NCBI GenBank assembly: GCA_044344255.1
Contig: JBIJDH010000025.1
Span: 1 to 64,000, forward strand
From: Myxococcota bacterium
Lineage (GTDB): Bacteria; Myxococcota_A; UBA796; UBA2385
Direction of reading: 5' to 3'
Length of the DNA: 64,000 nucleotides
Shown in pieces: positions 9,792-43,958 of the stretch; the stretch's first letter is position 1, and the number at the start of each line of letters is the position of its first letter. Both the position numbers and the translations under genes were made by a program. A model generated the notes under the pieces. That model did no database searches and was not told where the DNA came from. It saw only the letters and a list, made by a program, of their open reading frames with translations.

Positions 9792-11276
9792 TTGCCTCTC
9801 CAGAACTCCACTCAGACCTACGTCCTCGCCATCGGCCTGAACGAGTACCCGCGGCTCGGCCCCGCCGCGACGCTGAAGGGGGCCCTCCACGACGCCACCG
9901 CCTGGGCCCGCTTCGCCCGGGAGGGGCTCCTGGTGGGGGCCGACCAGCTCCAGGTGCTCAGCTCGCCGCGCCTCTCCCCCGACACGCTGGGCCTGCCCGG
10001 CGAGCAGGTGCACGGCGCCACGCTCGCCGAGGTGGAGGCCGCCCTCGACGCCATGGTGTCCTGGCTCACGGCGCACGAAGACGGCTCCAGCACCGCCCTC
10101 ATCGTCTTCTCGGGCCACGGCGCGCATCTCGCGGCGGCCGAGGGCGCCGGGCCCGACACCGACTTCGCTGGCGATCGGCTCGCGCTCGTCCTCGAAGACG
10201 GCGAGGTGGAGGGCGGCCTGCTGCGGGGCGCCCTCGTGCTCAATCAGCTCGGGGCGCGGCTCGGCGCCGAGGGGCTGCAGCGCCGCGTCACCGTGGTGGT
10301 CGACGCCTGCTACGACACGGTGCGCGCCGAGGCCTTTGACCGCTCGACCCTCGGCCAGGAGCTCCCCCAGCAGGCGGAGGTCCGCATGCGCCTCCTCCTC
10401 GGCGCCGCCCTCGGCAGCCGGGCCTATGAGGGGGTGTTCGGCGGCGAGTGGCGCGGGGTCTACTCCTTCGCGCTGCTCACCCTGCTCGGCCAGTGGGAGC
10501 GGCGCCGGGTGAGCGACGTGATGGTGGTGCTCGGGAGCTACAGCGAGCTCACCTACCGGGCGCGCGCGCTCCTCGGCGCGCTCGGCTACTCCGACCAGGC
10601 GCCGAGCCTCGCGGGCAACTCCCGGGCCGCAAACCTGCCCTTCAACAACCCATCGGTCTTCAACGTGCCCGTGCCCGCGACCTGGACCCCGGACGGCTTC
10701 CGGCGGCCGAAGGAGCTGAGCGGCGACTCCGGCACCCTCGGGGTCTACTCCTTCACCCTCAAGAGCGGCCAGAGCAGCCTCGTGGTCGCCCAGTGCCTCT
10801 GGCTCTCGAGCGCGGTGTCGTACTCCACCCTGTCGGTGGACTGCACCAGCGCGGCCTACACCCTGAGCAAGGGGAGAGAGATCTGGTGGTTCGGCAGCGT
10901 CGCGCGCCCGAGCTGGTATGACAGCGCCACCTTGACGATCACCTGGACCCCGCTCACCGCGGTCTCGGGCGCGGGGGGTGCGATGTCGGTGAGCTTCAGC
11001 CCAGACACGAGCGTGGCCTGGAAGGCGACCAACATCACCGATCTGGCGAGCTGGGTCACCGGGGTGCCCGGCGGGCAGCATTGGTACAAGGCGGGGGAGC
11101 TCTGGCTGGGGCTGGCCTGGACAGGCAACGCGCTCGACAACGTGCGCTTCCTCGAGGTGGCCACCCTCAGTCAGCCGCCCAGCCTGAAGATCACGGGCGG
11201 CAGGGTCCTCAGCTACGACGCCGGCGCGCCCCCCGCGACCAAGACCCTCTCGTCGGTCCACGTCAAGGCGGTCTGA
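9792..11276 (+). CDS. Caspase-family (C14, metacaspase) protease with unknown C-terminal domain
   Basis: VLAIGLNEY, LKGALHDA, FSGHG (His codon 10116) and VDACY (Cys codon 10308). Confidence 0.85.
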   Translation: MPLQNSTQTYVLAIGLNEYPRLGPAATLKGALHDATAWARFAREGLLVGADQLQVLSSPRLSPDTLGLPGEQVHGATLAEVEAALDAMVSWLTAHEDGSSTALIVFSGHGAHLAAAEGAGPDTDFAGDRLALVLEDGEVEGGLLRGALVLNQLGARLGAEGLQRRVTVVVDACYDTVRAEAFDRSTLGQELPQQAEVRMRLLLGAALGSRAYEGVFGGEWRGVYSFALLTLLGQWERRRVSDVMVVLGSYSELTYRARALLGALGYSDQAPSLAGNSRAANLPFNNPSVFNVPVPATWTPDGFRRPKELSGDSGTLGVYSFTLKSGQSSLVVAQCLWLSSAVSYSTLSVDCTSAAYTLSKGREIWWFGSVARPSWYDSATLTITWTPLTAVSGAGGAMSVSFSPDTSVAWKATNITDLASWVTGVPGGQHWYKAGELWLGLAWTGNALDNVRFLEVATLSQPPSLKITGGRVLSYDAGAPPATKTLSSVHVKAV

Positions 11277-13569
11277 CCCCGCCCGGGATGTCCCGCACGA
11301 GCCGCAGCCCGACGGCGTCGGTGGCCTGGTCGGGCGGGCTGCCGAAGCGAGTGGCGGCGCGCTGGGTGACCACGGGGGAGCCGTAGAAGCCCCCGCGGAC
11401 GGCGCGGTGGGTGCCGGACGCGGGCCAGTCCGCCGCCCGGCGGCCCTGGATGGGGCCGAGGCGAGACCACCAGTTGGCGCACCAGGCGCGGGCGTTGCCG
11501 ACGAGGTCACCCGCGCCGTAGGGGCCCTCGTCCTCGGGGAAGGCGCCCACGGGCAGCAGGCCGGGCGGCGAGGGGGGCGAGCCGAGCACGCGCGACCACC
11601 GGGGCTCGAGCTGCCGGCCCCAGGGGGTGAGGCGCCCGTCCACGCCGCGGGCCGCCTTCTCGAGCTCGAGCTCCCCCGGCAGGCGGGCGCCGAACCAGGC
11701 CGCCGCGCGCGCCGCGGCCGGCTGGGTGAGCCCCGCGGCCGGGAGGTCGGGGTGGCCGATGAGGCGCAGCGTGTCGCCCTCCCGCGAGACGGCGGGGAGC
11801 GAGCGGTTCACGAGCGGCGCGGCGGCGGCGAGGCCGGCCTCGTCACCCAGGGCCAGCAGCGCCTGCAGGTGGGCGAGGTAGCGCCCGAGGGTGACGGGGA
11901 GGCGCTCGAGGACGAAACCATCGACCCAGACCTCTTGCCGCGACAGGCTGTCCGCCGCGGAGGGGTCGCCGCCGACGACACACCAGCCGGCGGGCACATA
12001 GACCTCGTGGGGGCGGACGTCGCCTGGCTCTGGGATCCAGACGGGGTGCGGATCTCCGCCCTCGGGGGGCACGCCGTCCCAGTGGGCGCCGCGGTCGATG
12101 CGCACGGGGTAGCGCACGAGCGCCCCGGGGCCCTCGAGCGTCACCAGATAGGAGCCCTTCGGCATTGGGGCCGCGCGGAGGGGCGTCGGGCCGAGCTCGC
12201 GCTCGAAGCGGGGGACGAGGCGGCGGCCCTCCTCGACGTACCGAAAGAGCCGAGCCCGGGCCGGCCGGGTGGTGTAGAGCGTGAGGGCGCCGTCTCCGCG
12301 CAGGTAGGCGGCGTGTCGACCGCGGTCGTGGGTGGCCAGCATGAGCTCGCTCCGCGCGATGGCGTGGGGGTCGCCCTCGGCCTCGGCGCGGGCGAGGGCG
12401 CCCTGGTACACGTCGGCGAGCAGCGCGTGGGCCTCGGGCAGGGCGGGGGCGCGCTCCAGCGCGGCGCGGAGCTCCTGGAGCAGCGTGGCCTCGCGCAGGG
12501 TCACCTCGGAGGCGGCGGCCTCGGCCCGGTCCTGGAGGGCCCAGCCGGGCGCGAGCGCCGAGACGGGGTCGCCGGGCGCCACGGCTTGCAGCGCCGTCTC
12601 GGCCTCGGCGGAGAGGGTGGTGACGGAGTGACGCAGCGCCGCGATGTCGGGGAGCCGGGCTCGGGCGCGCTCGACGATGAGGAGGGCCTCGGCGCGGCGC
12701 TCCGCCCCCTCGAGCCAGCCGGCGAGGGCCCGGGCGAGGGCGCCGCCGTCGGGGTAACGGTCCGCGGGCCGGAGGCAGAGGGCGCGGGCGCAGATGGCGC
12801 GGAGGTCGTCGGGGACGCAGGGGTCGTCCAAGGCCGGCTCCTCGGGGCCCTGCACGAGGGCGGCCCACACCGCGCGGGGGCTCCCGGCGTAGGGCGGTCG
12901 GCCGCAGAGGGCGTGGAAGAGCACCGCGCCGAGGGCCCAGACGTCGGTGGTGGGCCCGAGCCCGGGCTCGCCGCGGGCCTGCTCGGGGGGCATGTAGGCC
13001 GGCGTCCCGACGACGCCGTCGGCCCCGGCCCCCTCGGGCCCGAAGGTGCGCGCGACCCCCCAGTCCATCACCCGCACCTCGCCGAAGGCCCCCACCATCA
13101 GGTTGGCGGGCTTGAGGTCACGGTGCAGGACGCCGCGGCTGTGCGCATAGGCGACCGTGTCGGCCACCCGCTGGAGCAGGGAGACGAAGCGCCGCTGCGC
13201 CTCGGCGCTGGGGGTGCTGGTGTCGAAGAGGTTCGCCAGCGTCTCTCCCTCGACGAGGGTGATGGTGAACCAGGGGCGGCCATCTTCGAAGACGCCGTGG
13301 TCGTAGACGGCGGGGATGCCTGGGTGTTGGAGGCGCGCGGTGATGGCGACCTCGGAGCGGAAGCGCGCGCGGGCGGCGGGGTCGTCGAGCAGCTCCCAGC
13401 CGAGGATCTTCATCGCCACGGGGATGTCGAGCTTCTCATCCCAGACCCGGCGCACCTCGCCCATCCCCCCGCGCGCGAGGAGACCCTGGTCGCGGTAACG
13501 GGCGCCCTCGCCGAAGGTGGCGCGGTCAAACGGCGTTGCGGTGGGGGAGCCCCAGGTGGAGTCGCTCAT
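11263..13569 (-). CDS. Ser/Thr protein kinase fused to an FGE/SUMF1-like domain
   Basis: ARGGMGEV, VAMK, HRDLKPAN, DWG and GTPAYMPPEQ kinase motifs. C-terminal RLPGELELEKAARG, DLVGNARAW, RGG and GLRLVR. Confidence 0.9.
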   Translation of the reverse strand: MSDSTWGSPTATPFDRATFGEGARYRDQGLLARGGMGEVRRVWDEKLDIPVAMKILGWELLDDPAARARFRSEVAITARLQHPGIPAVYDHGVFEDGRPWFTITLVEGETLANLFDTSTPSAEAQRRFVSLLQRVADTVAYAHSRGVLHRDLKPANLMVGAFGEVRVMDWGVARTFGPEGAGADGVVGTPAYMPPEQARGEPGLGPTTDVWALGAVLFHALCGRPPYAGSPRAVWAALVQGPEEPALDDPCVPDDLRAICARALCLRPADRYPDGGALARALAGWLEGAERRAEALLIVERARARLPDIAALRHSVTTLSAEAETALQAVAPGDPVSALAPGWALQDRAEAAASEVTLREATLLQELRAALERAPALPEAHALLADVYQGALARAEAEGDPHAIARSELMLATHDRGRHAAYLRGDGALTLYTTRPARARLFRYVEEGRRLVPRFERELGPTPLRAAPMPKGSYLVTLEGPGALVRYPVRIDRGAHWDGVPPEGGDPHPVWIPEPGDVRPHEVYVPAGWCVVGGDPSAADSLSRQEVWVDGFVLERLPVTLGRYLAHLQALLALGDEAGLAAAAPLVNRSLPAVSREGDTLRLIGHPDLPAAGLTQPAAARAAAWFGARLPGELELEKAARGVDGRLTPWGRQLEPRWSRVLGSPPSPPGLLPVGAFPEDEGPYGAGDLVGNARAWCANWWSRLGPIQGRRAADWPASGTHRAVRGGFYGSPVVTQRAATRFGSPPDQATDAVGLRLVRDIPGGVRPP

Positions 13570-13576
13570 CGCGGGG

Positions 13577-13582
13577 AGCGTA
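13577..13582 (-). promoter_or_regulatory. Candidate -10 element (TACGCT), leaderless transcript
   Basis: TANNNT 7 nt before the kinase ATG; no SD sequence. Confidence 0.5.
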
Positions 13583-13613
13583 CACCGCGCGGGCTCCGAG
13601 ATAGAGCGTGCCG

Positions 13614-15269
13614 ATGCGGCCCCACCTCGCCATCGGCGTCTCCGACTTTCCTTCCCTCCGGCGGAAGGGCCAACCCTACGTCGATAAGACGAGCGCCGTC
13701 GCCGATCTCATCGAAGCGAGGCGCCCCGCGACGGTCTTCTGTCGGCCACGCCGCTTTGGCAAGTCGCTCCTGCTCTCCACCCTTCGAGCCTTCCTGGAGC
13801 GGGGGCCCGCCGACCTCAGCTCTACCTTTGAGGGCCTCGCCATCTGGGACCGCCCGGCCGCCCGCGCGCACTTTCAGCGCCACCCCGTCATCCACATCAG
13901 CCTGAAGGACGTGAAGGGGGCGACGTGGGCCCAGGCTTCGCAGCAGGTCGCCCTGGCCGTGAAGGCGGAGTGTGAGCGTTTGGCCTGGCTTCACGATGGT
14001 CTGGAGGCGCTGGGGAGGAGCGGATTTCAGAACCTCGTCTCGGCCGCGCCTGACATGGAGGGGGTCCAGAGGGCCCTGATCGATCTGTCCGTCTGGCTGC
14101 ACCGTCTGACTGGGGAAGAGGTCGTGATCCTCGTGGACGAGGTTGACGCGCCCATCCACCTGGGTCAGTCGAGGGGATACTACCGTGAGGTCCTTGACTT
14201 CTTGCGGTCTTTTCTGGGCGGTGGCCTGAAGGACAACCCGGTGGTGATGCTCGGGGTGGTCACCGGAGTGCTGCGCGTCTCTCGAGAAGGCCTGTTCTCC
14301 TCCTTCAACAACGCGGCGATCTATTCGATCCTGGATGAGGCCTATGCCAGCGCCTTTGGATTCCTGGAGTACGAGGTCGAGCAGCTTCGCCTGCAGGTTG
14401 ACAGCCCTCTCTCTCTCGCAGAGCTTCGGCATTGGTATAATGGCTATCGAATTGGCGGACTGGAGGTCTACAACCCCTGGTCCGTCCTCTGCGCCCTCGA
14501 TCGACAGAAGCTCGACGCATGGTGGGTAGACAGCGGCTCCCACGAGGCCCTCGGCCGGCTGCTCCTCAAAGGGGGCGAGCCGGTGCAGCGCGATCTTCGG
14601 CGATGGATGTTGGGGGATGAGGTCCCGGGCTTCATCGAGGACACCGTGCTGCTCGCTCATGAGAGACCCTCCGACATCGTCGCCTTGCTCGTACACGGCG
14701 GCTACCTCACCCCCGTCTCCGTGGAGCCCCGCGCGTCCGGGGGCTGGCAGGCGCTGCTCCGGGTACCCAACCAGGATGTGGCCGAGTCTCTCCTCGCCGC
14801 CAGTCGACGTTGGCTGATGGAGATGGAGCTCGACAGCCCGACCCTTCGAGACATCGGCGCGGGGCTCCTCGGTGGGGACGCACGTTTCGGAGATGCGCTC
14901 GGTCGACTGCTCCGCGGCGCGGCCTCCTTTCACGACTTCCCTTTCGCCGACGCCGAGCGCGGCTATCACACCTTCCTGCTGGGCCTCCTCGTGTCGCTCG
15001 AGCCCCGACACCAGCTCCGCTCCAACGCCGAGAGCGGCTATGGCCGGGCCGATCTCCTCGTGCTCCCCCGACAGGCGGGGCAGGTCGGGGCGGTCATCGA
15101 GCTCAAGCGGGTGGCCAGCGCCGACGAAGCCGAAGCCGCCCTCGACACTGCGGCCGCGCAGCTTGGGCTCCGCGCCTACGACCAGGCGCTCATCGACCGG
15201 GGAGCAACGCCGATCCGGCGATGGGCCGTGGTCTTCTGCGGGAAGCTGGTGTGGACGCGGTTGATGTAG
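13614..15269 (+). CDS. AAA-ATPase-like protein with C-terminal PD-(D/E)XK nuclease domain (DUF1703/PDDEXK_9 type)
   Basis: IGVSDF..YVDKT, RPRRFGKS Walker A, ILVDEVD Walker B, WYNGY..YNPWS, ERGYH, ESGYGRADL..VIELK. Confidence 0.9.
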   Translation: MRPHLAIGVSDFPSLRRKGQPYVDKTSAVADLIEARRPATVFCRPRRFGKSLLLSTLRAFLERGPADLSSTFEGLAIWDRPAARAHFQRHPVIHISLKDVKGATWAQASQQVALAVKAECERLAWLHDGLEALGRSGFQNLVSAAPDMEGVQRALIDLSVWLHRLTGEEVVILVDEVDAPIHLGQSRGYYREVLDFLRSFLGGGLKDNPVVMLGVVTGVLRVSREGLFSSFNNAAIYSILDEAYASAFGFLEYEVEQLRLQVDSPLSLAELRHWYNGYRIGGLEVYNPWSVLCALDRQKLDAWWVDSGSHEALGRLLLKGGEPVQRDLRRWMLGDEVPGFIEDTVLLAHERPSDIVALLVHGGYLTPVSVEPRASGGWQALLRVPNQDVAESLLAASRRWLMEMELDSPTLRDIGAGLLGGDARFGDALGRLLRGAASFHDFPFADAERGYHTFLLGLLVSLEPRHQLRSNAESGYGRADLLVLPRQAGQVGAVIELKRVASADEAEAALDTAAAQLGLRAYDQALIDRGATPIRRWAVVFCGKLVWTRLM

Positions 15270-15313
15270 GGGGCCGTTGTTGTAGGGGACAATTGACGGA
15301 TGGGTGGCCTACC

Positions 15314-15664
15314 TCAGCCGAGGCTGGCCGCCCCTTGGCGCGCCCCCACGGACGGGTCGACGTCGATCGCTTCCTCCCCAAGGAGGCGAATGGCGGATTG
15401 GCGGAGAGACTGCAGGTGCGTTGGGAGGAGGATGAGCGCCCAGGCCCGGTCGGGGTGCCTCGGCTCGAGGGTCTCCTCGGCGAGGCGGACTGCGCTCCGC
15501 GCGTGGTTCAAGGCTGGTTCGAGGTCTCCCAGCTCCCGCTCGACATTGGCCATCATCGTCCGTTGGCGCACCACCTGCCAGCTCGTGCCGCTCACAGAGC
15601 GGGCCCACGAGAGCTCTGATCTGCGGGCGAGTTCGAGCGCTGCTTGTGGCCGCCCCACCACCAT
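15314..15664 (-). pseudogene. TPR-like gene fragment or small TPR protein
   Basis: ANVERELGDLEPALNHARSAVRLAEETLEPRHPD resembles a kinesin-light-chain type TPR unit. Short, with an unstructured tail. Confidence 0.45.
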
Positions 15665-15689
15665 CCAGAAGTCAGCCTACCCCGTCGCC

Positions 15690-16613
15690 TCAGTCCGCGG
15701 CGGCGACCACGATGCGCTCCACGCCGATGCGGAGCTGTCCGCTCAGGCGACGACGCTCAAAGAGGCGAGCGGCGCCCTCCACCCCGGCCTGTCCGAGCTG
15801 CTCGCGGGCGCGGAAGAGGTAGAGGTTGAGCGTGGCCGGCTCGAGCCGCATCGCGCGCTGGAGGTCGTCGGTGTAACGCCAGCCGGCCTCGGCGCGGGAG
15901 GCCCCCTCGGCCTGGTCGGCGAGGCGGGCGCGGGCGAGCTCGAGCATCACGAACTGGTGGGCGCGCGGAGAGAGGGGCGCGCCCCCGCCCGGCCAGGCGA
16001 GCTCGACCTCGACCTGCTCCTCGTCGGCGCTCGGGCGAAAGGTGAGGGAGAGGGTCTCGATCTGCGGCTTCGTGGAGATGTCCCACGTCTCGGGGAGGCC
16101 CTCGGTGCGCGGGCCCACGGGGAGGAGGAGCGACCAGCGCTCCTCACCGAGCGTGAGGGACTGGCCGTCCTCGGCAGGGGAGGGGGCGCCGTCGATCTCG
16201 ACGGTCCAGGCGCCGCCGGCCTCTTCGAAGAGGAGGGCCCGGGGATCGTCGGGGCTGGGGAGGGCGAGCAGGCCGTCGCTCGCCCGCACGAGGGCGCCGT
16301 CTCCCGCTCGGCGGGCGGCGGGGCCGGGGGGCCCGAGGTCGAGCACGACCCCGAGGCGCAGGGCGCCGAGGCGGAGCGTCTGGCCGACCGCGAGGGGCCG
16401 CGACCGCCCGGGCTCGAGCGGCGCGTCGTCTTGAAAGGTGCCGTTGCGGCTCCCGAGGTCTCGGAGCTGCCAGGCGCCGTCCGCCCAGCGGATCGAGGCG
16501 TGCTCGCCGCTCACCTGGCGGTCGTCGACGAACACGGTGCAGAGCGCCGAGCGCCCAAAGAGGGTGCGGGCGCCCAGCGAGATGCACCCATCGGCGAGGA
16601 GGAGCACGGCCAT
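15690..16613 (-). CDS. FHA-domain protein with probable C-terminal winged-helix
   Basis: FGRS, VSGEHA and RDLGSRNGT FHA motifs. C-terminal helix pattern DDLQRAMRLEPATLNLYLFRAREQL. Confidence 0.85.
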   Translation of the reverse strand: MAVLLLADGCISLGARTLFGRSALCTVFVDDRQVSGEHASIRWADGAWQLRDLGSRNGTFQDDAPLEPGRSRPLAVGQTLRLGALRLGVVLDLGPPGPAARRAGDGALVRASDGLLALPSPDDPRALLFEEAGGAWTVEIDGAPSPAEDGQSLTLGEERWSLLLPVGPRTEGLPETWDISTKPQIETLSLTFRPSADEEQVEVELAWPGGGAPLSPRAHQFVMLELARARLADQAEGASRAEAGWRYTDDLQRAMRLEPATLNLYLFRAREQLGQAGVEGAARLFERRRLSGQLRIGVERIVVAAAD

Positions 16614-32563: not shown

Positions 32564-34054
32564 ATGTCGAACCCGCCCCCGTCCGCTGAGCCCAGTGAAG
32601 CCGTAAAGTCCACCATCCGGGCTTATGGCGAACGGGTGGAGCAGTTTCTCGAGTACTGTGTCACCTACCAGCGACACGATCCGGATGTCTTCCTTTGGAA
32701 CGCGCGTCGGATCGCCGAGGCGAGCTGCAAGATCGTGCTCCTCGCCGTCACTGGTCGGGTAGACCCGAACCCTGAGGCCAAGCTCGAGAGCCTGATCTCG
32801 GAGGCCAGGGCCAAGGGCGGGCTGGACGACGTCGAATTCACCGCGCTCAAGAACATCCAGGGGAGCTCCAACCACGGGGTTCACGTCCGGACGCACGATC
32901 GGGAGAAGTACCTCAAGCTCGTGGGCTTCGTGAAGCAGCCCCTCGCAGACCTCGTGAGTTGGCTCTACACGCGCAGCCCGGCGCATCTCTGGCTCACGCG
33001 GCCCGACAACCTCGACGAGCAGATCGCGCGGCTGGTCGCCGGCGGACGCAGCGAGCGCGCTCCGCTCGATGAGCTGCGACACCAGGACGCCGAGCTCACG
33101 CGGCTCCGCGCCGAGGCCCACCGGCTGTCCCGCGAGCGAGACGCGCTCACCGGCGAGCGAGACCGGCTCGCCGACCTCCTCCAAGCGGCGCGAAACACCC
33201 TCAAGGACGCCGAGAGCCTGTGGATCGCCGAGCGGCGCGGCCTCGAGCACCGCATGCAGGAGTTGGCCGCCCTCCCCGCGCGGAGCCAGCGTCACTCCGC
33301 CCTCCTCGGCCTCGGCGGGCTGGGGCTGGGGCTGGGCCTCGCCTCCTGTGTGGGCCTCGGGCTCTTTGGCTTCGCCGATCTCGGGATGAGCGGCGGCCTC
33401 GCGGGGGCCTCTGCGGAGATCGCCGTGCACCCCCCAGGCGCGGCGCCGGCCGCGGTCGTCGGGGAGGCCCCCCTCCGCTGCCCCTCCGGGATGGTGCTCA
33501 TCCCCGCGGTCACCCTCCAGCTCGGGCAGCCGGTGGGCGGTCGCACGAAGTGGCCTCGGGCGAGCCCCGAGTCGCTCGACCCCATCGCGGTCGAGGCCTT
33601 CTGTTTCGACGTCGACCCGCTCCGCTGGTTTGAAGTGCCCGAGCCCGTGGCTGGAGGGGTGCGCGCCTCCCGCTGCGCGAAGGCAGCCGGTGAGGTGCAG
33701 CCCGTCGGTTGGGCCGGCTGTCACAGCCGCGCACAGGCGGAGGAGGTCTGCGGGAAGCGCGAGCCCGTGGCCCGCCTCCCGAGCATCGCCGAGTGGGAGG
33801 CCGTCGCGCGCGCGGAGGCCGCGGTGAACATCCCCAAGGGGCGGTTCTGGGAGTGGGCGCAGGATGAGTTCCCGCCGCACATCTTCAACCGGCGCGGCGC
33901 GGCGGAGCGCGACCAGGGCATGTTTCGCCAGCCTCTGCCGACGCAGAGCGCGGCGCTGTCCCCTGTGGGAAATGTCCTGTACTCCTGGAACCAGCACGAC
34001 GTGGACGACGGCGTCAATGTCCTCGGCTTCCGCTGCGCCTTCACCGCGCGGTAG
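32564..34054 (+). CDS. DUF4145/HEPN-like domain + coiled coil + TM + FGE/SUMF1-like domain
   Basis: ARRIAEASCK..LESLI..IQGSSNHGVH, a heptad-rich segment, a Gly/Leu TM, then CPSGMVLIP, RLPSIAEWE, WEWAQD, GFRCA. Confidence 0.7.
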   Translation: MSNPPPSAEPSEAVKSTIRAYGERVEQFLEYCVTYQRHDPDVFLWNARRIAEASCKIVLLAVTGRVDPNPEAKLESLISEARAKGGLDDVEFTALKNIQGSSNHGVHVRTHDREKYLKLVGFVKQPLADLVSWLYTRSPAHLWLTRPDNLDEQIARLVAGGRSERAPLDELRHQDAELTRLRAEAHRLSRERDALTGERDRLADLLQAARNTLKDAESLWIAERRGLEHRMQELAALPARSQRHSALLGLGGLGLGLGLASCVGLGLFGFADLGMSGGLAGASAEIAVHPPGAAPAAVVGEAPLRCPSGMVLIPAVTLQLGQPVGGRTKWPRASPESLDPIAVEAFCFDVDPLRWFEVPEPVAGGVRASRCAKAAGEVQPVGWAGCHSRAQAEEVCGKREPVARLPSIAEWEAVARAEAAVNIPKGRFWEWAQDEFPPHIFNRRGAAERDQGMFRQPLPTQSAALSPVGNVLYSWNQHDVDDGVNVLGFRCAFTAR

Positions 34055-37136: not shown

Positions 37137-37323
37137 AGGCACGTCCACAGCGTGGACAGAGCGAGGAGGGATCGGATACGTCGGCCGAGAGGGAGGACGT
37201 CTGAATGGAAATTCGGAGGGTGTGCGACGAGTCGAGTCCCACGCGGTCTGTGCGGATAGCCCCGAGGGGGCAGGGCCACCCCTGGCGCGTCATCGGTGCC
37301 GGCGCGCCGTCGGAGCGCAGGTC

Positions 37324-38121
37324 GTGACAGACCTCAACGAGATCGTCTCCGCCCTCCGCCAGCAGCCCCCACCCTCGGAGGCGTGGGGCGCCGTCGCCCC
37401 TGCCATCGAGCGGCTCAGTCGCCGCGTCCTCGGTCACCTCGCCGACAAGCGCCCCGACGTCTTCGAGGAGGTCGTCGAGGGGGTCATCGAGAAGGCGCAG
37501 ACGCGGCTCCTCATGGGCGTGGGCCTCGGCGAACAGCCGAGGGCCTTCGTGGCCCAGATGCTCCGCCACGCGGCGGCCGACGCGCAGCGCCGCAGGACCG
37601 CCTTTGGCGGCGCCCGCCAGCGGATGTCCGATCACGAGGCGGAGCAGCGGGCGGTCGAGCAGTCCCCGACCGGTCACCGCTTCCCGAGCCCCGACGAGGG
37701 GCTGCGCCAGCGCGAGCTGTTGGTGGCGGTCGAGGCGGTGCTCGAGCAGGCCCTCGCGCAGCGACAGCCCCGGTATCGCTCCGATCTGCAAGACGCGTGG
37801 GACTTCGCCCACCGCCGCGCCGTCGAAGGGCGCTCGATCCGCGCGCAGGTGGAGGCCGAGCGCCCCGAGCTCGACGCCGACGGCCTCCGCAAGGAGACCG
37901 AGCGTCGCACGCGAGCCGGGCAGCGCCTGCGAGACCTCCTGCTGGAGGTGGCCGAGGGCCCAGCGTCGATCGGCGGGGGCGGCGTGCAGGAGGCGGATGC
38001 GGGTGAGCTCCTCCTCGAATACCTGCGCCGCTTGGCTGGCTGTCCGGGCGGCGGGGAGCGCGGCGTCTCGGACCTGGACCCCGTCGAACCCGGGGGCGAA
38101 CCGCCGGAGGACGAATCATGA
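37324..38121 (+). CDS. Divergent ECF sigma-70-like factor
   Basis: Region-2-like PRAFVAQMLRHAAADAQRRR and region-4-like EGRSI..RRTRAGQRLRDLL. GTG start after GGAG; start uncertain. Confidence 0.55.
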   Translation: MTDLNEIVSALRQQPPPSEAWGAVAPAIERLSRRVLGHLADKRPDVFEEVVEGVIEKAQTRLLMGVGLGEQPRAFVAQMLRHAAADAQRRRTAFGGARQRMSDHEAEQRAVEQSPTGHRFPSPDEGLRQRELLVAVEAVLEQALAQRQPRYRSDLQDAWDFAHRRAVEGRSIRAQVEAERPELDADGLRKETERRTRAGQRLRDLLLEVAEGPASIGGGGVQEADAGELLLEYLRRLAGCPGGGERGVSDLDPVEPGGEPPEDES

Positions 38122-39158
38122 GCCGCTCCCTCGAACAGCACCTCCGCGACGAGCTGTCGCTCCCGGAGGGGTCTCCGCTGTCCATCCGCCTGCTCGAGGC
38201 GGCTCCCGCCTCTTTGGCGCCGTCGGTGGCCCACGCGCTCCAGCTCCGCGAGCCCCCTCAATCCAGCCTGGCCCGTGGGCTCGATCCCGCCGCGGTCACC
38301 GCCATCCTCGAGGGTGCGCTCCCCTTTGGCCTCGGCCGCTTTGACGAGGCCCCCGACGTCTTCGTGATCCTCCCGACCGAGCTCCATCGGGTGCGGCGGG
38401 CCGACTGGGCCGAGGCGCTCCCCGGGGAGGGCGGCGCGGCCTTGGTGGCCCTCGACAGCCAGCGCGGCCCGATCCGGATCGCGCTCTCGGCCGGGCGGGC
38501 CGTGGTCCTCGACCATGGCGCCGTCTACGAGCTCTCCTTCGCCGATCCGAGCCTCAGCGTGTCGGAGGTTGTCAAGGGGTGTGGCGCCCTGTGGTCCGTT
38601 GAGCCCTGGCTCTGGGAGCGGCTGGTCGCGCTCGAGCAGGGCGCTGACGCCACCGCCTCCCTCGCGGCGGCGGGGGCGCTGCTCCGCCTCTGGCGGCCGG
38701 TCGGCGTCGAAGCGCGGGCGGAGGCCCGGCGGCTGTTACACAGCGGGCGCCTCCCGCCGCCGCTGGCCGCCGCGCAGGCCTGGCTCCGCGCGCTCCCCGC
38801 GGAGCGGCTGAGCGCCACCTCGCGGAGCGCGGCGCGTGAGGCCGACCGCCTCATCGAGGCCCTGGCCCGCGGGATCGAGGCCTGTCTCCGCGCCGAGGTG
38901 GGCGCGACGGCCGCAGTTCGGGCCCTGGTGCTCGATCGGGAGGGGCTCGCCGCCCAGCTCACCGCTCTCCGTGTCGCCGGTGTGGAGGGTGCGGAGGGTG
39001 CGGAGGGCTGCGCCGCCGGCCTCGATCGCGCCGCGCTCTCCGCCTTGGAGGTCCTCCACCTCGCCCTCCCCGCTTGGACCGAGGCCGAACAGGCGCTGCT
39101 CTGGGCCGCGGCCGCCCATGACCCCGCCGCCTGGTGGCCGACCCTGGCGGAGGCCTGA
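38118..39158 (+). CDS. Hypothetical soluble protein (candidate anti-sigma or protease substrate)
   Basis: 346 aa, ATGA and TGATG coupling to both neighbours, no recognisable motif. Confidence 0.7.
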   Translation: MSRSLEQHLRDELSLPEGSPLSIRLLEAAPASLAPSVAHALQLREPPQSSLARGLDPAAVTAILEGALPFGLGRFDEAPDVFVILPTELHRVRRADWAEALPGEGGAALVALDSQRGPIRIALSAGRAVVLDHGAVYELSFADPSLSVSEVVKGCGALWSVEPWLWERLVALEQGADATASLAAAGALLRLWRPVGVEARAEARRLLHSGRLPPPLAAAQAWLRALPAERLSATSRSAAREADRLIEALARGIEACLRAEVGATAAVRALVLDREGLAAQLTALRVAGVEGAEGAEGCAAGLDRAALSALEVLHLALPAWTEAEQALLWAAAAHDPAAWWPTLAEA

Positions 39159-40882
39159 TGCCCCCGAGCCTGCGCGACCTGCTCGACGGCCCACCCCAGA
39201 GCCCCGGCGTCGAGCAGGGGCGGCTGCGGTCCTCCCTCGGCTGGCCCCTCTGCTGGCCCCCTGAGCCCGAGCTGCAAGCCCGCCTCGTGGCCCTCCTCGG
39301 CGCCGCCCCTGCTCCTCGCGACCTGCCGGGCCCGGCCTTCCTCACCGCCGAGGCGGAGCGGGGCGGGCAGGGCGCGCTCTGGCTCTTCGAGGGCAGGACG
39401 CCCACCCCCCTCGGGGGCGTGGCCGCGCGGGCGGTGCAGGCGGCGGCGGCCTTGGCCCTGCGCGCCCTCCCCGACGCCGCCGATCTGGACGCCTTGCTCT
39501 CACCCCCCGAGGCGCCGAAGGGAGCAACGCTCGTCGGGCGCACGGCCGGGCTCCCGCCTGCGGTCGTCGAGGGCGACTCCCTCGGGCTCGCGGCGCTGCT
39601 GCACGCAGGCGCCCGGGCCCTCGGCGTCGATGCGCGCCGCGACGTCGCCATCGGCGCGCTCGACGAGCACGGTCGGGTGCTGCGGGTGGGCGGCCTCGGG
39701 CCCAAGCTCGCGGCGCTGCGCGGTGTCGCCGTCGGGCTCGCCCGCGTCTGGGTCTCGGTAGAGCAGGCCGCCGAGGTGGAGGGGGCGCTGCCTCCGGGGG
39801 TGCAGCTCATCGCGGTGGCCACCTCGGAGGGGGCGATGCAGGTGCTGGGCGCGATGGCCCCCCACCCGAGCCGGCCGAGCGGGGCTGAGCGCGACCAGGT
39901 CGGCGCCCTGTTCGGCCCGCTGATGCGGGCGGCTGTGCAGGTGACGAGCTGGACGGCGGTGGAGCGGGTCGCGAGGCGCTGGGCGGCGCAGGTGGACGAG
40001 CCCCACCTTGGCTGGCAGCTCGACTGGATCGCCGCCACCGCGGGGCGTCACGCGGGGCACCACCCGGAGCGCTTCCCGAGCCCAAGCCCCCCCGTGGGGG
40101 AGCTCGCGGACCCCGTCCGCGCCCTCTTGCTCAGCCAGTGCATTCAGCACGTGGCCGACGGGGGAGAGGGCGACGCCGATCTGCTGCTGGCGGAGCTCCC
40201 CGGAGACGCCGCCCTGCGCGGCGTCGAGTGGCGACAGGCGACGGGCGCGGCCGCCCGACTGGCGCTGTCCCTCGGTCGCCTCGAAGCGGCGGTGCGGTGG
40301 GCCCGGGAGGCGACGCAGGCCTGGATCGAGGCCGAGGCCCGCTCTGGTGCCTCCTTCGCCCTCTGCGCCTGGCTCATCGCCGCGGGAGCCCTGGGCGAGC
40401 CCGGTGCCATTCACTCGGCTCGGCGGGTGGCGACCACCCTCCGGCGCTCCTTCGAGCCCGCTCCCCAGCACTTCGTCGACCTCGCCGCCGCCCGCGCCCT
40501 GCTGCCGATCGACCCCGCGCGGGCCGCCGACGCGCTCCGCGACCTCTCTGGGCGCCTCCAGGCCGCGCCCGACTACCTCCACGGCTCCTGCGGCCGGGCC
40601 TGGGCGGCCGCGGCGCTCGCCCACGGTGATCGGGGCGAGGCGGCGCGCCTCCTCGGGGAGCTCCGGGCCTCCGCGGCGGAGCCCGGCCGCTCGGCAGACC
40701 TCGCCTTTTACCGGGACATGGCCGAGCTCGACCGTGCGCTCGAGGGGGGGCTGCCATGGGAGACAGCGCTCGAGGCCCTGCGCGGCCACCCGCGGCAGCT
40801 CGGCGCCGTCGCCCGCCGCATGCTCCCGCCCGACGCCAGTGCCCCCGCCCTCACGCGCGCGCTCAAGGCCTTCCCGTATTAG
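39158..40882 (+). CDS. Lon-type (S16) Ser-Lys protease domain fused to a TPR-like helical region, no AAA+ module
   Basis: EGDSLG..RRDVAIGALDEHGRVLRVGGLGPK aligns with Lon GPSAG..RADVAMTGEI..GQVLPIGGLKEK. Ser codon 39578, Lys codon 39704. Confidence 0.75.
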   Translation: MPPSLRDLLDGPPQSPGVEQGRLRSSLGWPLCWPPEPELQARLVALLGAAPAPRDLPGPAFLTAEAERGGQGALWLFEGRTPTPLGGVAARAVQAAAALALRALPDAADLDALLSPPEAPKGATLVGRTAGLPPAVVEGDSLGLAALLHAGARALGVDARRDVAIGALDEHGRVLRVGGLGPKLAALRGVAVGLARVWVSVEQAAEVEGALPPGVQLIAVATSEGAMQVLGAMAPHPSRPSGAERDQVGALFGPLMRAAVQVTSWTAVERVARRWAAQVDEPHLGWQLDWIAATAGRHAGHHPERFPSPSPPVGELADPVRALLLSQCIQHVADGGEGDADLLLAELPGDAALRGVEWRQATGAAARLALSLGRLEAAVRWAREATQAWIEAEARSGASFALCAWLIAAGALGEPGAIHSARRVATTLRRSFEPAPQHFVDLAAARALLPIDPARAADALRDLSGRLQAAPDYLHGSCGRAWAAAALAHGDRGEAARLLGELRASAAEPGRSADLAFYRDMAELDRALEGGLPWETALEALRGHPRQLGAVARRMLPPDASAPALTRALKAFPY

Positions 40883-41099: not shown

Positions 41100-43007
41100 C
41101 TATCGGGGCGCCCCCGTCTCCCCGAAGACCCGCCGGGTGAAGGGGTTGAGGAGCTTGCCCGTGGGGTCCTGCTGGCGGCGGAGCGCCTGAAAGCGGGTGT
41201 ATCGGTCACCGTAGACCGCGAGCATCTGATCGGCCATGTAGTTGGTCTTCTTGCCGAGGTGAGGCTGACCGCCGTATCGGAGGAAGATCTCGTCGGCCTC
41301 TGCGTAGACCTCGGCGTCGAACTGGGAGAGCGGAGTGGCGAGCTCGATGTACGCGGTGGGCCGACCCACCCCGGGCCCGAGCAGCGCCGCCGACTGGTCG
41401 GGGGTGAAGCGCAGCTCGACGATCGAGAAGAAGCGGCGACGGGAGAGCATGTCGATGATGTCCTTCGTACAGGCCCGCCACACCTCGAAGGGGAGCCCGT
41501 ACTCGATCTCGTCGTGCCGATAGAAGAGCCGGCGCCCGAAGCCCATGCTGCCGGGCATGACGAGGCGGTGGTCGGGGGCGAGCGTGTCGGAGGCGAAGCC
41601 GTCCTCGTCGAGGCTCGCCAGCACCTCGGCCACGCCGGGCAGGGCGGCGCTGATCGCGAAGTCTGTGAGCTCCGCGCGCGCCTTCTGCTTCTGCCAGTCG
41701 GGGGTCAGGGGCTCGGTCGTGCGGTTCCAGCGGTGCATGCGCACGCTGTCGCAGCGCTCGCCGCCGCCCACGTAGTAGAAGCTCAGGTGCTCGTTGTGGG
41801 CGAGCAGCGCCTCCATCTCGGCCTCGACTTGCGCCCGGTCGACCATGGCGGTGCTCTTGGCGATGTGGAAGGCCGGGACGAGCTGGAGCTCCACCTCCGC
41901 GATGATCCCCATGGTGCCGAGCGCGCCGAAGGCCGCGTGGAAGATGGGGTCGCCGGGGCGATGTGTGCGGGCCACGCCGGCGGCGTCAATGATCCGCAGG
42001 GACAGGACCTGCTCGGAGAGGAAGCCGTGGTCGCGGCCGGAGCCGTGCAGATCGGTGCAGATGAGGCCGGCGATGCTCTGGGCGTCGGTGGAGCCGAGCA
42101 CCGGGAGGCCGAGGCCCGCGGCCCACAGGGCGGTGTTGAGGTCGCGGAGGCGAATGCCCGCCTGGACCCGCGCGGTCCTCGCCGCTCGGTCGATCGACAG
42201 GACCGCGTCGTAGGCGTCCAGCGAGATGAGGGTGTCGGGGGAGAGCGGTGAGTCGTTGAAGGTGTGTCCGCCGCCCACGACCCGCAGCGCCTGAGACTGG
42301 CCCACCACCTGACAGAGCTCGGCCTCAGACTGGGGACGCAGGTAGGAGTTCGGTTGGACCGAGTAGTTGTTCGTCCAGTTCCGCCAGACACCGTCCGCGA
42401 AGTGCCCCTCGTGATCGGCGGCGCCGGTCGCGAGATACAGCCCGCCCTGTGCGAGATCGAAGAGGTGCGTGCCCATCCGTTCGGCGGCCCGACTGAGGAG
42501 GCCCCGGATCCCCGTGCGCTCCCGGTGATAGGCCCCGAGGGCCTCCGCGAGCCCTTCGAGGCCATTTCCGTGCAGCGCGCGGAGGCAGAAGGACTCGGAC
42601 CAGCGGCGATCGACATGGCCGAGGGCGTCGATGCGGCGGCTGAGGGCGGCGAGCTGCTCCTCGCGGAGGAGGCCTTGCTCGCTGCGGCCGCTGTCGGTGA
42701 TGATCGCGGCGCGCACAAACGCTCGGGGGAGCGTCAGATCGCCGTCGGCGGCGGCGCGGAAGGCCGCCACCAGGGCCTCGACCGTCGCCGACTGAGCGAC
42801 CGTGGGCATCGGCGTCCAGGGTCGGCGAGCGGTGCTCTCGAGCCACCAGCGCAGATCGGTCGCCTCGAGTGAGTCGGCGGCGCCGGTCGCGGCCTTCACG
42901 GCGAGGTGGTCAAGGGGCCAGGCGCCCAAGCGAAGGTCGACCGCGGCCCGCTCGTCTGGGGTGAGCTCAAGGTAAGCGGGGTGGTCCTGGATACGTCCCT
43001 GGCTCAT
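41100..43007 (-). CDS. FAD-linked oxidase (ALO/gulonolactone oxidase family) with about 200 aa N-terminal extension
   Basis: WRNWT, RVVGGGHTF, ICTDLHGSG, GALGTMGII, VELRF, GGQPHLGK. GGAGG before ATG 43007. Confidence 0.85.
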   Translation of the reverse strand: MSQGRIQDHPAYLELTPDERAAVDLRLGAWPLDHLAVKAATGAADSLEATDLRWWLESTARRPWTPMPTVAQSATVEALVAAFRAAADGDLTLPRAFVRAAIITDSGRSEQGLLREEQLAALSRRIDALGHVDRRWSESFCLRALHGNGLEGLAEALGAYHRERTGIRGLLSRAAERMGTHLFDLAQGGLYLATGAADHEGHFADGVWRNWTNNYSVQPNSYLRPQSEAELCQVVGQSQALRVVGGGHTFNDSPLSPDTLISLDAYDAVLSIDRAARTARVQAGIRLRDLNTALWAAGLGLPVLGSTDAQSIAGLICTDLHGSGRDHGFLSEQVLSLRIIDAAGVARTHRPGDPIFHAAFGALGTMGIIAEVELQLVPAFHIAKSTAMVDRAQVEAEMEALLAHNEHLSFYYVGGGERCDSVRMHRWNRTTEPLTPDWQKQKARAELTDFAISAALPGVAEVLASLDEDGFASDTLAPDHRLVMPGSMGFGRRLFYRHDEIEYGLPFEVWRACTKDIIDMLSRRRFFSIVELRFTPDQSAALLGPGVGRPTAYIELATPLSQFDAEVYAEADEIFLRYGGQPHLGKKTNYMADQMLAVYGDRYTRFQALRRQQDPTGKLLNPFTRRVFGETGAPR

Positions 43008-43082
43008 CAATCGGCCTCCATGATCTCCTCTCTCTTGCACGATCTCCCGCCTTGTGCCATCCTCACTGGCCGGAGAGAAGAT

Positions 43083-43904
43083 TTGGAGATCTGCTTCCCG
43101 CTCCCCACGCGCGACTTCGATCCTACCGAAACCGCGATCCCTTGGCGGACGCTTGTCGACGCGGGGCACCGGATCCTCTTCGCCACCCCCGACGGTCAGC
43201 CTGCGCAGGCCGACGAGCGCGTGCTGACGGGGCGAGGCTTCGCGATCTGGCAGCCCTTCTTGCGGGCGGGCGCCCACGCCCAGGAGGTCTACCGGGAGAT
43301 GGCGGCGAGCCCGGCCTTCCAGCGCCCGATCTCCTATGCGGAGCTCGACCTGCGCTCGCCGGACGGCCTCGTGTTGACGGGCGGCCACGCCCCCGAGATG
43401 AAGGCCTACTTGGAGGCGGAGCCCGTGCAGCGCCTCGTGCTGCGCATGATGCGGGCGCGCCGCCCGGTGGGCGCCCTCTGTCATGGCGTGCTCGTGTTGG
43501 CTCGCACGAGAGACCCCGCCACGGGCCGCTCCGTGCTCCACGGGCGGAAGGTCACCTCTCTCAATCGTGTGCAGGAGCTCCTCGCCTGGGGCATGACGGG
43601 CCTCTGGCTCGGGTCCTATTACCGGACCTACCCAGAGACGGTGGAGGCGGAGGTGCGGCTCGTGCTGGCCTCCCCGAATGACTACCTCTCCGGGCCCTTC
43701 TCGGTGCTGCGGGAGGGCCCGCGGAAGCTCGGCGTCGGCTTCGTGGTGCGGGACGGGAACCTCCTCACCGCGCGGTTTTATGGGGACGCCTATCGTTTCG
43801 GCCAGGCCTTCCTGTCGATGCTGGAGGAGGGGCCGGGGCCGGGGCCGGGGCCGGGCCCGGGGGCGGACGGGGAGGGGGAGGGGCCTCCACCGGGGCCGGC
43901 TTGA
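43083..43904 (+). CDS. DJ-1/PfpI (class I glutamine amidotransferase-like) protein
   Basis: DFDPTE..PW, LVLTGGHA, GALCHGV nucleophile elbow, VVRDGNLLTAR. TTG start inferred. Confidence 0.85.
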   Translation: MEICFPLPTRDFDPTETAIPWRTLVDAGHRILFATPDGQPAQADERVLTGRGFAIWQPFLRAGAHAQEVYREMAASPAFQRPISYAELDLRSPDGLVLTGGHAPEMKAYLEAEPVQRLVLRMMRARRPVGALCHGVLVLARTRDPATGRSVLHGRKVTSLNRVQELLAWGMTGLWLGSYYRTYPETVEAEVRLVLASPNDYLSGPFSVLREGPRKLGVGFVVRDGNLLTARFYGDAYRFGQAFLSMLEEGPGPGPGPGPGADGEGEGPPPGPA

Positions 43905-43958
43905 CGGTGTTACGGTGGGGGGCCAGGCCATCGCCGGCTGGGTGAGGGAGCGGTCTCT

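Follow-up and report, generated by a model that had tools for sequence, protein, structure and literature searches.

A conserved triad of an ECF-like sigma factor, a soluble middle protein and a Lon-TPR protease in Myxococcota as a candidate switch for defence genes

The stretch of DNA analyzed here (the window) comprises 64,000 nucleotides of a Myxococcota bacterium (assembly GCA_044344255.1, contig JBIJDH010000025.1, positions 1 to 64,000 of the forward strand), and three adjoining genes within it were found to belong to a conserved triad that consists of a divergent sigma factor like those of the extracytoplasmic function (ECF) type (gene 1), a soluble middle protein (gene 2) and a Lon-type protease fused to a tetratricopeptide repeat (TPR) domain (gene 3). 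We favour, with a confidence somewhat better than even, the reading that the triad is a soluble, cytoplasmic protease/anti-sigma/sigma switch for defence genes that works independently of CRISPR. The features are listed in Table 1. An earlier note, made from the sequence letters alone, had described three overlapping genes on the same strand, which was borne out by the coordinates of the open reading frames (ORFs) and by both junctions read in the sequence, namely ATGA at 38118-38121 (genes 1/2) and TGATG at 39156-39160 (genes 2/3). Each of the three genes is present as a single copy in the source genome. Searched singly, the three window proteins gave no match in Pfam, PADLOC or NCBIfam; the single-sequence searches with genes 1 and 2 returned near-identical copies only, and the locus scan with gene 3 returned nothing. 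The relatives were obtained by a profile route, and the identity of all three genes rests on work at the family level.

Table 1. Coordinates of the triad genes and of the features located within them (positions in the window).
Feature	Position	Strand	Remarks
Gene 1, ECF-like sigma factor	37324..38121	+	265 aa, GTG start; sigma region 2 in N-terminal half, atypical helical C-terminal half
Predicted ECF-type promoter TGTCCGG-N16-CGTC	38041..38067	+	within the last part of gene 1; gene 2 starts 50 nt further on
Gene 2, candidate anti-sigma and protease substrate	38118..39158	+	346 aa, soluble
Candidate cut site, gene 2 residues 52-55 (Ala-Arg-Gly-Leu)	38271..38282	+	end of low-confidence linker; lead only
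Gene 3, Lon-type (S16) protease-TPR fusion	39158..40882	+	574 aa
Catalytic Ser141 codon	39578-39580	+	invariant in 131/131
Catalytic Lys183 codon	39704-39706	+	invariant in 131/131
TPR domain, candidate ligand pocket	39875..40879	+	conserved polar residues and terminal Tyr574

The gene 3 family was detected in 39 of the 401 genomes of the window's phylum, and an exhaustive search gathered its relatives into 148 clusters at 50% identity, mostly full-length matches of 550-610 aa. Scanning named genomes for a DNA pattern yielded 43 loci, mostly of Myxococcota type and from Acidobacteriota (Vicinamibacterales) with a few other labels; 37 of them had the protease, and the six that lacked it were rejected as chance matches. 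After the removal of eight duplicates, the locus set contained 72 loci, including 60 with ≥2.3 kb of upstream sequence. Co-occurrence in other genomes had been set beforehand as a test, and relatives of genes 1 and 2 were observed in the window order at 53 of these 60 loci, as well as at 25 of the 30 loci outside the profile-building set, with junctions that mostly overlap or abut. The misses were a locus with a weaker sigma match (L044), one with no sigma (L040), a fragment at a contig end (L074), two orphan proteases (L066 and L084), a locus of a sister subtype (L075) and a rearranged locus (L060) that carries all the parts on two divergent arms and keeps all four of them together. A 942-aa Lon fusion called in L060 was rejected, being a wrong start call across the opposite-strand DUF3800-like gene. 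In the main subtype, gene 2 is present wherever the sigma and the protease are both present.

The three-gene composition proposed earlier held in that all three genes are conserved, but a DUF3800-like fourth gene (with DESG, PxH and AD motifs) belongs to many copies. It lies directly before the sigma gene in 25 loci, making 26 of 72 with L060, and two of its members pass the Pfam cut-off; its family profile found no match in the source genome. In the sister subtype (L075:639-4153 and L076:6891-9754), a canonical ECF sigma with regions 2 and 4, a 360-aa protein and a Lon-TPR protease occur with the same promoter motif as described below. The Lon-TPR of this subtype has Pfam TPR matches and an incomplete set of the RH/Q/D residues, and the helical domain of its 360-aa protein is N-terminal, in reversed order, and only weakly like that of gene 2 (E 5e-4, probability 31%). 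The 360-aa protein also carries an LAA motif like the cut site of CalpT, which is cleaved within LAAA according to the portion of the source drawn upon here (bioRxiv 10.1101/2024.05.08.593097). In about 10 Acidobacteriota loci (L085, L089-L091, L101, L103, L107, L109, L113 and L115), the protease is followed by an 830-aa SMC-like ATPase with weak LmuB/PDC-S06 matches, mostly with a 125-aa protein without an assigned family next to it.

Gene 3 is a stand-alone, ATPase-free Lon protease fused to a TPR domain, and it falls outside the ATP-dependent LonA and LonB types. The Ser-Lys dyad noticed earlier was confirmed, with Ser141 and Lys183 aligning with the dyad region of the M. jannaschii Lon protease domain and being invariant in an alignment made up of the query and 130 matches of 500-650 aa (n=131); the spacing between the two residues is 43 in 115 of these proteins and 42 in the window protein. 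The protein alone gave a single PDB sequence match, the M. jannaschii Lon protease domain (E 0.026), and the family profile matched the protease domain of E. coli Lon (E 4.7e-17), with only the protease domain covered (profile positions 12-245) against full-length Lon. The AlphaFold2 model (mean predicted local distance difference test score, pLDDT, 92.3) contains a Lon-type protease domain at about 25-237, which resembles the LonA protease domain (Foldseek, VIA; Z 15.4, root-mean-square deviation (rmsd) 3.3, 167 aligned), and a TPR superhelix at about 240-574; no AAA+ ATPase module was found in gene 3, and the rest of the model beyond the protease domain is TPR. The helical tail mentioned in the earlier note thus proved, by the fold match of the model, to be this superhelix, standing where SAVED had been expected to be replaced by a TPR-like sensor. 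No SAVED or CARF domain was matched in gene 3 with Pfam, PADLOC or NCBIfam, and the PADLOC CRISPR-Lon model matched one of three full-length members tested, around the active site only (E 6.7e-4).

The TPR domain is strongly conserved at Trp265 (122 of 131), Arg297 (131), His298 (129), Gln330 (128), Asp334 (124), Arg367 (131), Arg480 (128) and the terminal Tyr574 (123), which suggests a ligand pocket or an intramolecular clamp. Its best fold match is the phage Rap protein, a TPR protein of the RRNPP type (Z 17.8, rmsd 4.9, 299 aligned), followed by domain III of MalT (Z 16.6), with NprR and PlcR also among the matches; the ESM Atlas returned generic TPR clusters only for the tail. A TPR-only profile found 28 matches in 301 genomes of the phylum, all 28 being the same Lon fusions, and no fusion to other enzymes, kinases included. 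Two of the three orphan protease copies examined (L061:1513-3387 and L066:7929-9296) have no partners and lack the normal Ser-Lys dyad, with the TPR residues kept.

Gene 1 belongs, as judged from sequence and profile comparisons, to a divergent ECF-like sigma family. The earlier assignment as a sigma factor stood for region 2, as Sigma70_r2 was matched in nine of 33 family members (best E 1.3e-5) and the top PDB matches of the family profile are ECF sigma factors, with SigE at E 1.5e-5 over profile positions 30-130. For region 4 it held in part: the C-terminal half is conserved and helical-looking, and it gave no significant match to Sigma70_r4 or to this region of solved sigma factors.

The solubility claimed for gene 2 was upheld, with none of 33 members exceeding 1.9 in a 19-residue Kyte-Doolittle window. 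Its AlphaFold2 model (mean pLDDT 84.6) starts with a short helix and a strand, followed by a flexible linker, then a beta domain at about 60-141 and a conserved helical C-domain at about 163-345 that holds the invariant residues Arg274, Asp303 and Trp339. The family gave no Pfam match in 33 members, no match to PDB sequences and no Foldseek match; a second fold search returned generic three-helix bundles only (Z ≤8.8), and the ESM Atlas gave no usable match. The CalpT and Csx30 structures were not among the fold matches, which does not exclude a likeness, and MazF-like and DUF2080 domains were matched neither by Pfam in the 33 members nor among PDB sequences, the fold searches being poor on the beta domain. 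No Pfam match to a zinc anti-sigma domain was observed. Residues 33-48 of the linker have pLDDT <50, and in one linker column 43 of the 59 proteins aligned have Gly, the next residue being Leu or Phe in 30 of 59; this conserved Gly is a possible cut site for the protease.

The junction between the sigma gene and gene 2 carries a motif with the family consensus TGTCAGA-N16-CGTC, which was found at 29 of 55 loci against three of 275 control windows, a count that is partly circular because these same junction windows served to train the motif model. Relative to the sigma gene, the motif occurs in each of the three reading frames or past the stop, so that it is kept as DNA. When the junctions were masked, 20 exact copies were counted at N16 against zero to four at each of 13 other spacings (929 kb), and 22 of 32 relaxed N16 sites were located within 200 nt before a gene start, as compared with 10 of 26 controls at other spacings. 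The proven ECF41 promoter, TGTCACA-n16-CGTC, has the same layout and differs at a single base (PMC3426412); in ECF41, a fused C-terminal domain controls the sigma, and the part of that account used here describes no protease or separate partner. We infer that the gene 1 sigma recognises TGTCAGA-N16-CGTC.

The motif ties the triad to defence genes, in agreement with the anti-phage role that had been among the early suggestions. It precedes the genes for a CARF-HEPN RNase (Csx1) and cmr4 (L060), cas10 (L069, at 249 nt, and L132) and viperin (L048), as well as a type I methylase (L099), a DEDDh nuclease (L078) and a helicase of a candidate defence family (L119); it was also located before several genes without a family match and, in six Acidobacteriota loci, before the sigma gene itself. 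Genome G152, one of the 38 genomes serving as 'Lon-negative' controls, carries the sigma and gene 2 together with 16 motif copies, which precede dynamin-like, cmr and reverse transcriptase (RT)-cas1 operons and, in one case, dnaK.

Several further sites were recorded. In the source genome, one of the three other sites of the window's type (G000:C9:8690, minus strand; L122:1-10755) lies 24 nt before an operon of vWA, PP2C, kinase and SF1 helicase genes, by a serine recombinase; the helicase is a PADLOC MkoA match and the vWA/PP2C/kinase operon is presumably TerY-P-like and is, as a lead only, a candidate sigma target in this genome. Another (G000:C38:16003, minus strand; L123:7491-7940) lies 37 nt before a 150-aa gene without a family match, which adjoins a DUF3368/UPF0175 pair in a prophage-like region. 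The same motif was seen at the end of the first gene of a different three-gene unit (L127:6797-11535 and L131:2564-7058; about 500, 590 and 430 aa, no Pfam match), which lies beside RT-cas1/cas2 in G152 and type III genes in genome G386. In addition, L137:3613-7968 (G152:C471) holds another stand-alone Lon-like gene, with Ser and Lys in Lon-like motifs (probability 83%), that sits behind a 448-aa protein and an exact motif site, the preceding gene being no sigma-family match.

Among the neighbours, of which 370 of the 514 called, plus repeats, were scanned against Pfam or PADLOC, type III CRISPR genes adjoin 10 of the 72 loci, and other loci adjoin viperin, pPIWI-RE, type I restriction, bacteriophage exclusion (BREX), HerA, AbiEii-type ATPase or vWA/PP2C/kinase genes; these counts are raw and carry no background rate. 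Many loci, including the window, sit mostly among housekeeping genes. A strong Cas10 match (E <1e-20) was obtained in 12 of 39 carrier genomes and in 31 of 362 others (Fisher p 2e-4, overstated by kinship). In the protease tree, which omits 11 short or partial loci, the CRISPR-adjacent copies are scattered, with nine changes for nine of 61 tips, no fewer than in shuffles. No cas gene was found in the window among the genes called, only part of which were Pfam-scanned, in line with what had been reported earlier, and the source genome (95% complete) gave no cas1 match and only weak palm-domain matches for cas10. The CRISPR link of the family is therefore repeated but optional, and the independence from CRISPR put forward at the outset fits the 27 of 39 carrier genomes without a strong Cas10 match but not the loci that adjoin type III genes.

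According to the mechanism that we favour, gene 2 would hold the ECF-like sigma inactive in the resting state, as suggested by gene order, size and analogy, and the binding of an intracellular signal to the TPR domain of gene 3 would turn on the Ser-Lys protease, as its domain anatomy suggests. Because gene 3 has no ATPase, it would cleave gene 2 only once, the N-terminal linker being the likeliest place, and by analogy with CalpT the removal of gene 2 would probably be completed by proteases of the host. The freed sigma might then transcribe from the observed TGTCAGA-N16-CGTC promoters, their assignment to gene 1 being putative, and would induce genes 2 and 3 themselves, thereby resetting the switch, together with a limited number of defence genes, most of them nearby and varying between genomes.

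A number of observations weigh against this mechanism. Sigma70_r4 was matched in none of the 33 gene 1 members, and the region 4 of solved sigma factors was not significantly matched by the gene 1 profile, with a sub-threshold stretch against SigE only; gene 2 resembles no known anti-sigma by Pfam in 33 members, by PDB sequence or by fold searches. Besides the circularity mentioned, 26 of 55 junctions lack the motif. Its enrichment is weak in the carrier genomes (n=38), with 59 sites at N16 against 45 at N19, and the other genomes (n=38) gave 49 against 29, 16 of the 49 being from G152; in the source genome, the window-type site is not enriched, with four at N16 against four to 20 at other spacings. 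In G386, which gave no gene 2 match, three motif copies lie on a type III CRISPR contig, and other sigma factors may therefore use the motif too. Moreover, L084 is an intact Lon-TPR without partners, in G152 no Lon-TPR adjoins the sigma and gene 2, and the window's own neighbours are mostly non-defence genes.

The same switch might instead sense general cytoplasmic stress or a peptide cue, with the defence genes being only some of its targets. The best TPR fold matches (Rap, MalT, NprR and PlcR) are indeed peptide- or sugar-binding regulators, many loci including the window lie among housekeeping genes, and one of the G152 motif sites precedes dnaK; yet the patchy presence of the family (39 of 401 genomes), its repeated and independent association with type III CRISPR (nine changes for nine of 61 tips) and the motif sites before defence genes make this explanation unlikely. 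Another explanation concerns the role of the protease, which might be an effector or cut some other target (itself, the DUF3800-like protein, the sigma or a host protein), with genes 2 and 3 as the output of the sigma. The ATP-free Lon of CalpL cuts an adjoining anti-sigma, as reported in the part of the source drawn upon (bioRxiv 10.1101/2024.05.08.593097), and gene 2 is never missing where the sigma and the protease are co-present in the main subtype; we consider an effector role improbable to a like degree, although the motif follows the sigma gene and precedes genes 2 and 3, which puts these two in the position of target genes, G152 has the sigma and gene 2 without a protease alongside, and gene 2 has no recognised anti-sigma domain. 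It is very improbable that the triad serves type III CRISPR-Cas as an ancillary arm, with a Cas10 or Csx1 product or the Cmr complex as activator, and has been orphaned in the source genome, since the 10 of 72 loci adjoining type III genes and the enrichment of Cas10 in carriers (12 of 39 against 31 of 362) are offset by 27 of 39 carriers without a strong Cas10, by a source genome with no cas1 match and weak palm-domain matches that nevertheless keeps all catalytic and pocket residues, by the lack of a SAVED or CARF match in gene 3 and by CRISPR-linked copies that form no clade.

The switch that we favour was compared with known systems, the sources being represented here only in part. CalpL-CalpT-CalpS comprises a type III CRISPR SAVED-Lon protease, an anti-sigma and an ECF-like sigma, and it shares with the triad three adjoining genes, an ATPase-free Ser-Lys Lon protease, a middle protein and an ECF-like sigma (bioRxiv 10.1101/2024.05.08.593097). 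However, the triad protease has TPR where CalpL has SAVED, and the PDB matches of its profile are canonical Lon domains; the triad order is sigma, middle gene and protease; gene 2 gave no Pfam or PDB-sequence match to the MazF-like and DUF2080 domains of CalpT, its beta domain being poorly covered by the fold searches; and most triad copies lie away from CRISPR, the source genome having no cas1 or strong cas10 match, in contrast to the CalpL-CalpT-CalpS type III locus. Csx29-Csx30-CASP-sigma likewise has a TPR-bearing protease, a soluble anti-sigma and an ECF sigma that binds inside its own defence locus, but Csx29 is a Cas7-11-activated CHAT cysteine protease with a His-Cys dyad (PMC10028731), whereas the triad protease is of the Lon Ser-Lys type with no Cas7-11 seen, and gene 2 gave no match to the Csx30 structures. 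In DdvA-DdvS of Myxococcus xanthus, an ECF sigma switches on a defence island with a cyclic-oligonucleotide-based anti-phage signalling system (CBASS) and type III-B CRISPR, with a TPR-protease module as the presumed sensor; DdvA combines a zinc anti-sigma domain and a periplasmic TPR-CHAT in a single transmembrane protein (PMC11506125), whereas the triad consists of three soluble proteins with a Lon-type protease. The triad is therefore not a member of any of these systems, as its sensor, protease type or topology differs, and by analogy it would work like CalpL-CalpT-CalpS and Csx29-Csx30-CASP-sigma and play a part like that of DdvA-DdvS. The literature searched gave no description of a sigma/partner/Lon-TPR module or of its TGTCAGA motif, subscription journals and the supplementary tables of defence surveys being largely outside the search.

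Protease-released sigma factors in bacterial immunity were previously represented by a few CRISPR-bound cases and DdvA-DdvS, and the triad family would present the same logic as a free-standing soluble module in about one tenth of the genomes sampled from the phylum, its targets being indicated by a predicted promoter. For the co-ordination of many defence systems during infection, the family is a compact candidate that lends itself to testing; its catalytic and pocket residues are defined, as are a predicted promoter and a possible cut site, and its activating signal is worth finding.

A bolder extension, which we hold to be rather unlikely, is that the triad is a portable master switch for defence of both the innate and the adaptive kind. 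The TPR pocket (Arg, His, Gln, Asp and Trp) would sense a small nucleic-acid-derived alarm that arises during infection, such as short 5'-OH RNA fragments left by HEPN nucleases, the DUF3800 RNase-H-like partner would make or clear this alarm, and the freed sigma would induce any defence genes to which its promoter has spread (type III CRISPR, viperin, restriction, TerY-P and dynamin-like genes); the activity of one defence system would then prime others. The comparison behind it is CASK, composed of Csx32 (DUF3800), Csx33 (kinase-TPR) and Csx34, in which, going by the portion of the source used, Csx33 is activated by binding the tRNA-derived CCA trinucleotide (bioRxiv 10.64898/2026.08.25.746378). 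The idea of a short-RNA alarm arises because the TPR of CASK reads this trinucleotide and a DUF3800 partner is common to both; the two also share an enzyme-TPR fusion and a transcription regulator that raises defence expression, the TPRs being likened by description only. CASK differs in its kinase and DNA-binding activator and in being tied to Cas13, and a peptide ligand would be equally compatible with the modelled TPR fold.

Some minor observations were made in the window. An ORF at 32564-34051 (+) encodes a DUF4145 (HEPN-like) domain, a coiled coil, a membrane segment and an FGE-sulfatase-like domain (sub-threshold Pfam matches), and proteins like it are neighbours of the triad in L058, L062 and L081; an RxxxxH-like motif is kept in the L058 and L062 proteins, with Gln for Arg in the window copy and in L081. 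Proteins of this DUF4145 type are possibly loose members of the module. A short inverted repeat, gtccac-agc-gtggac, was located at 37143-37157, just after the upstream gene's stop and within the 186 nt that separate this gene from gene 1. A DJ-1/PfpI-family ORF at 42906-43904 (+) overlaps the 5' part of an FAD-oxidase ORF at 41100-43931 (-), the start of which is probably later than the longest ORF implies. Lastly, a caspase-domain protein, a kinase-FGE fusion, an AAA-ATPase/PD-(D/E)XK protein and an FHA protein lie side by side at 9792-16613 and may form a signalling or conflict cluster of their own.

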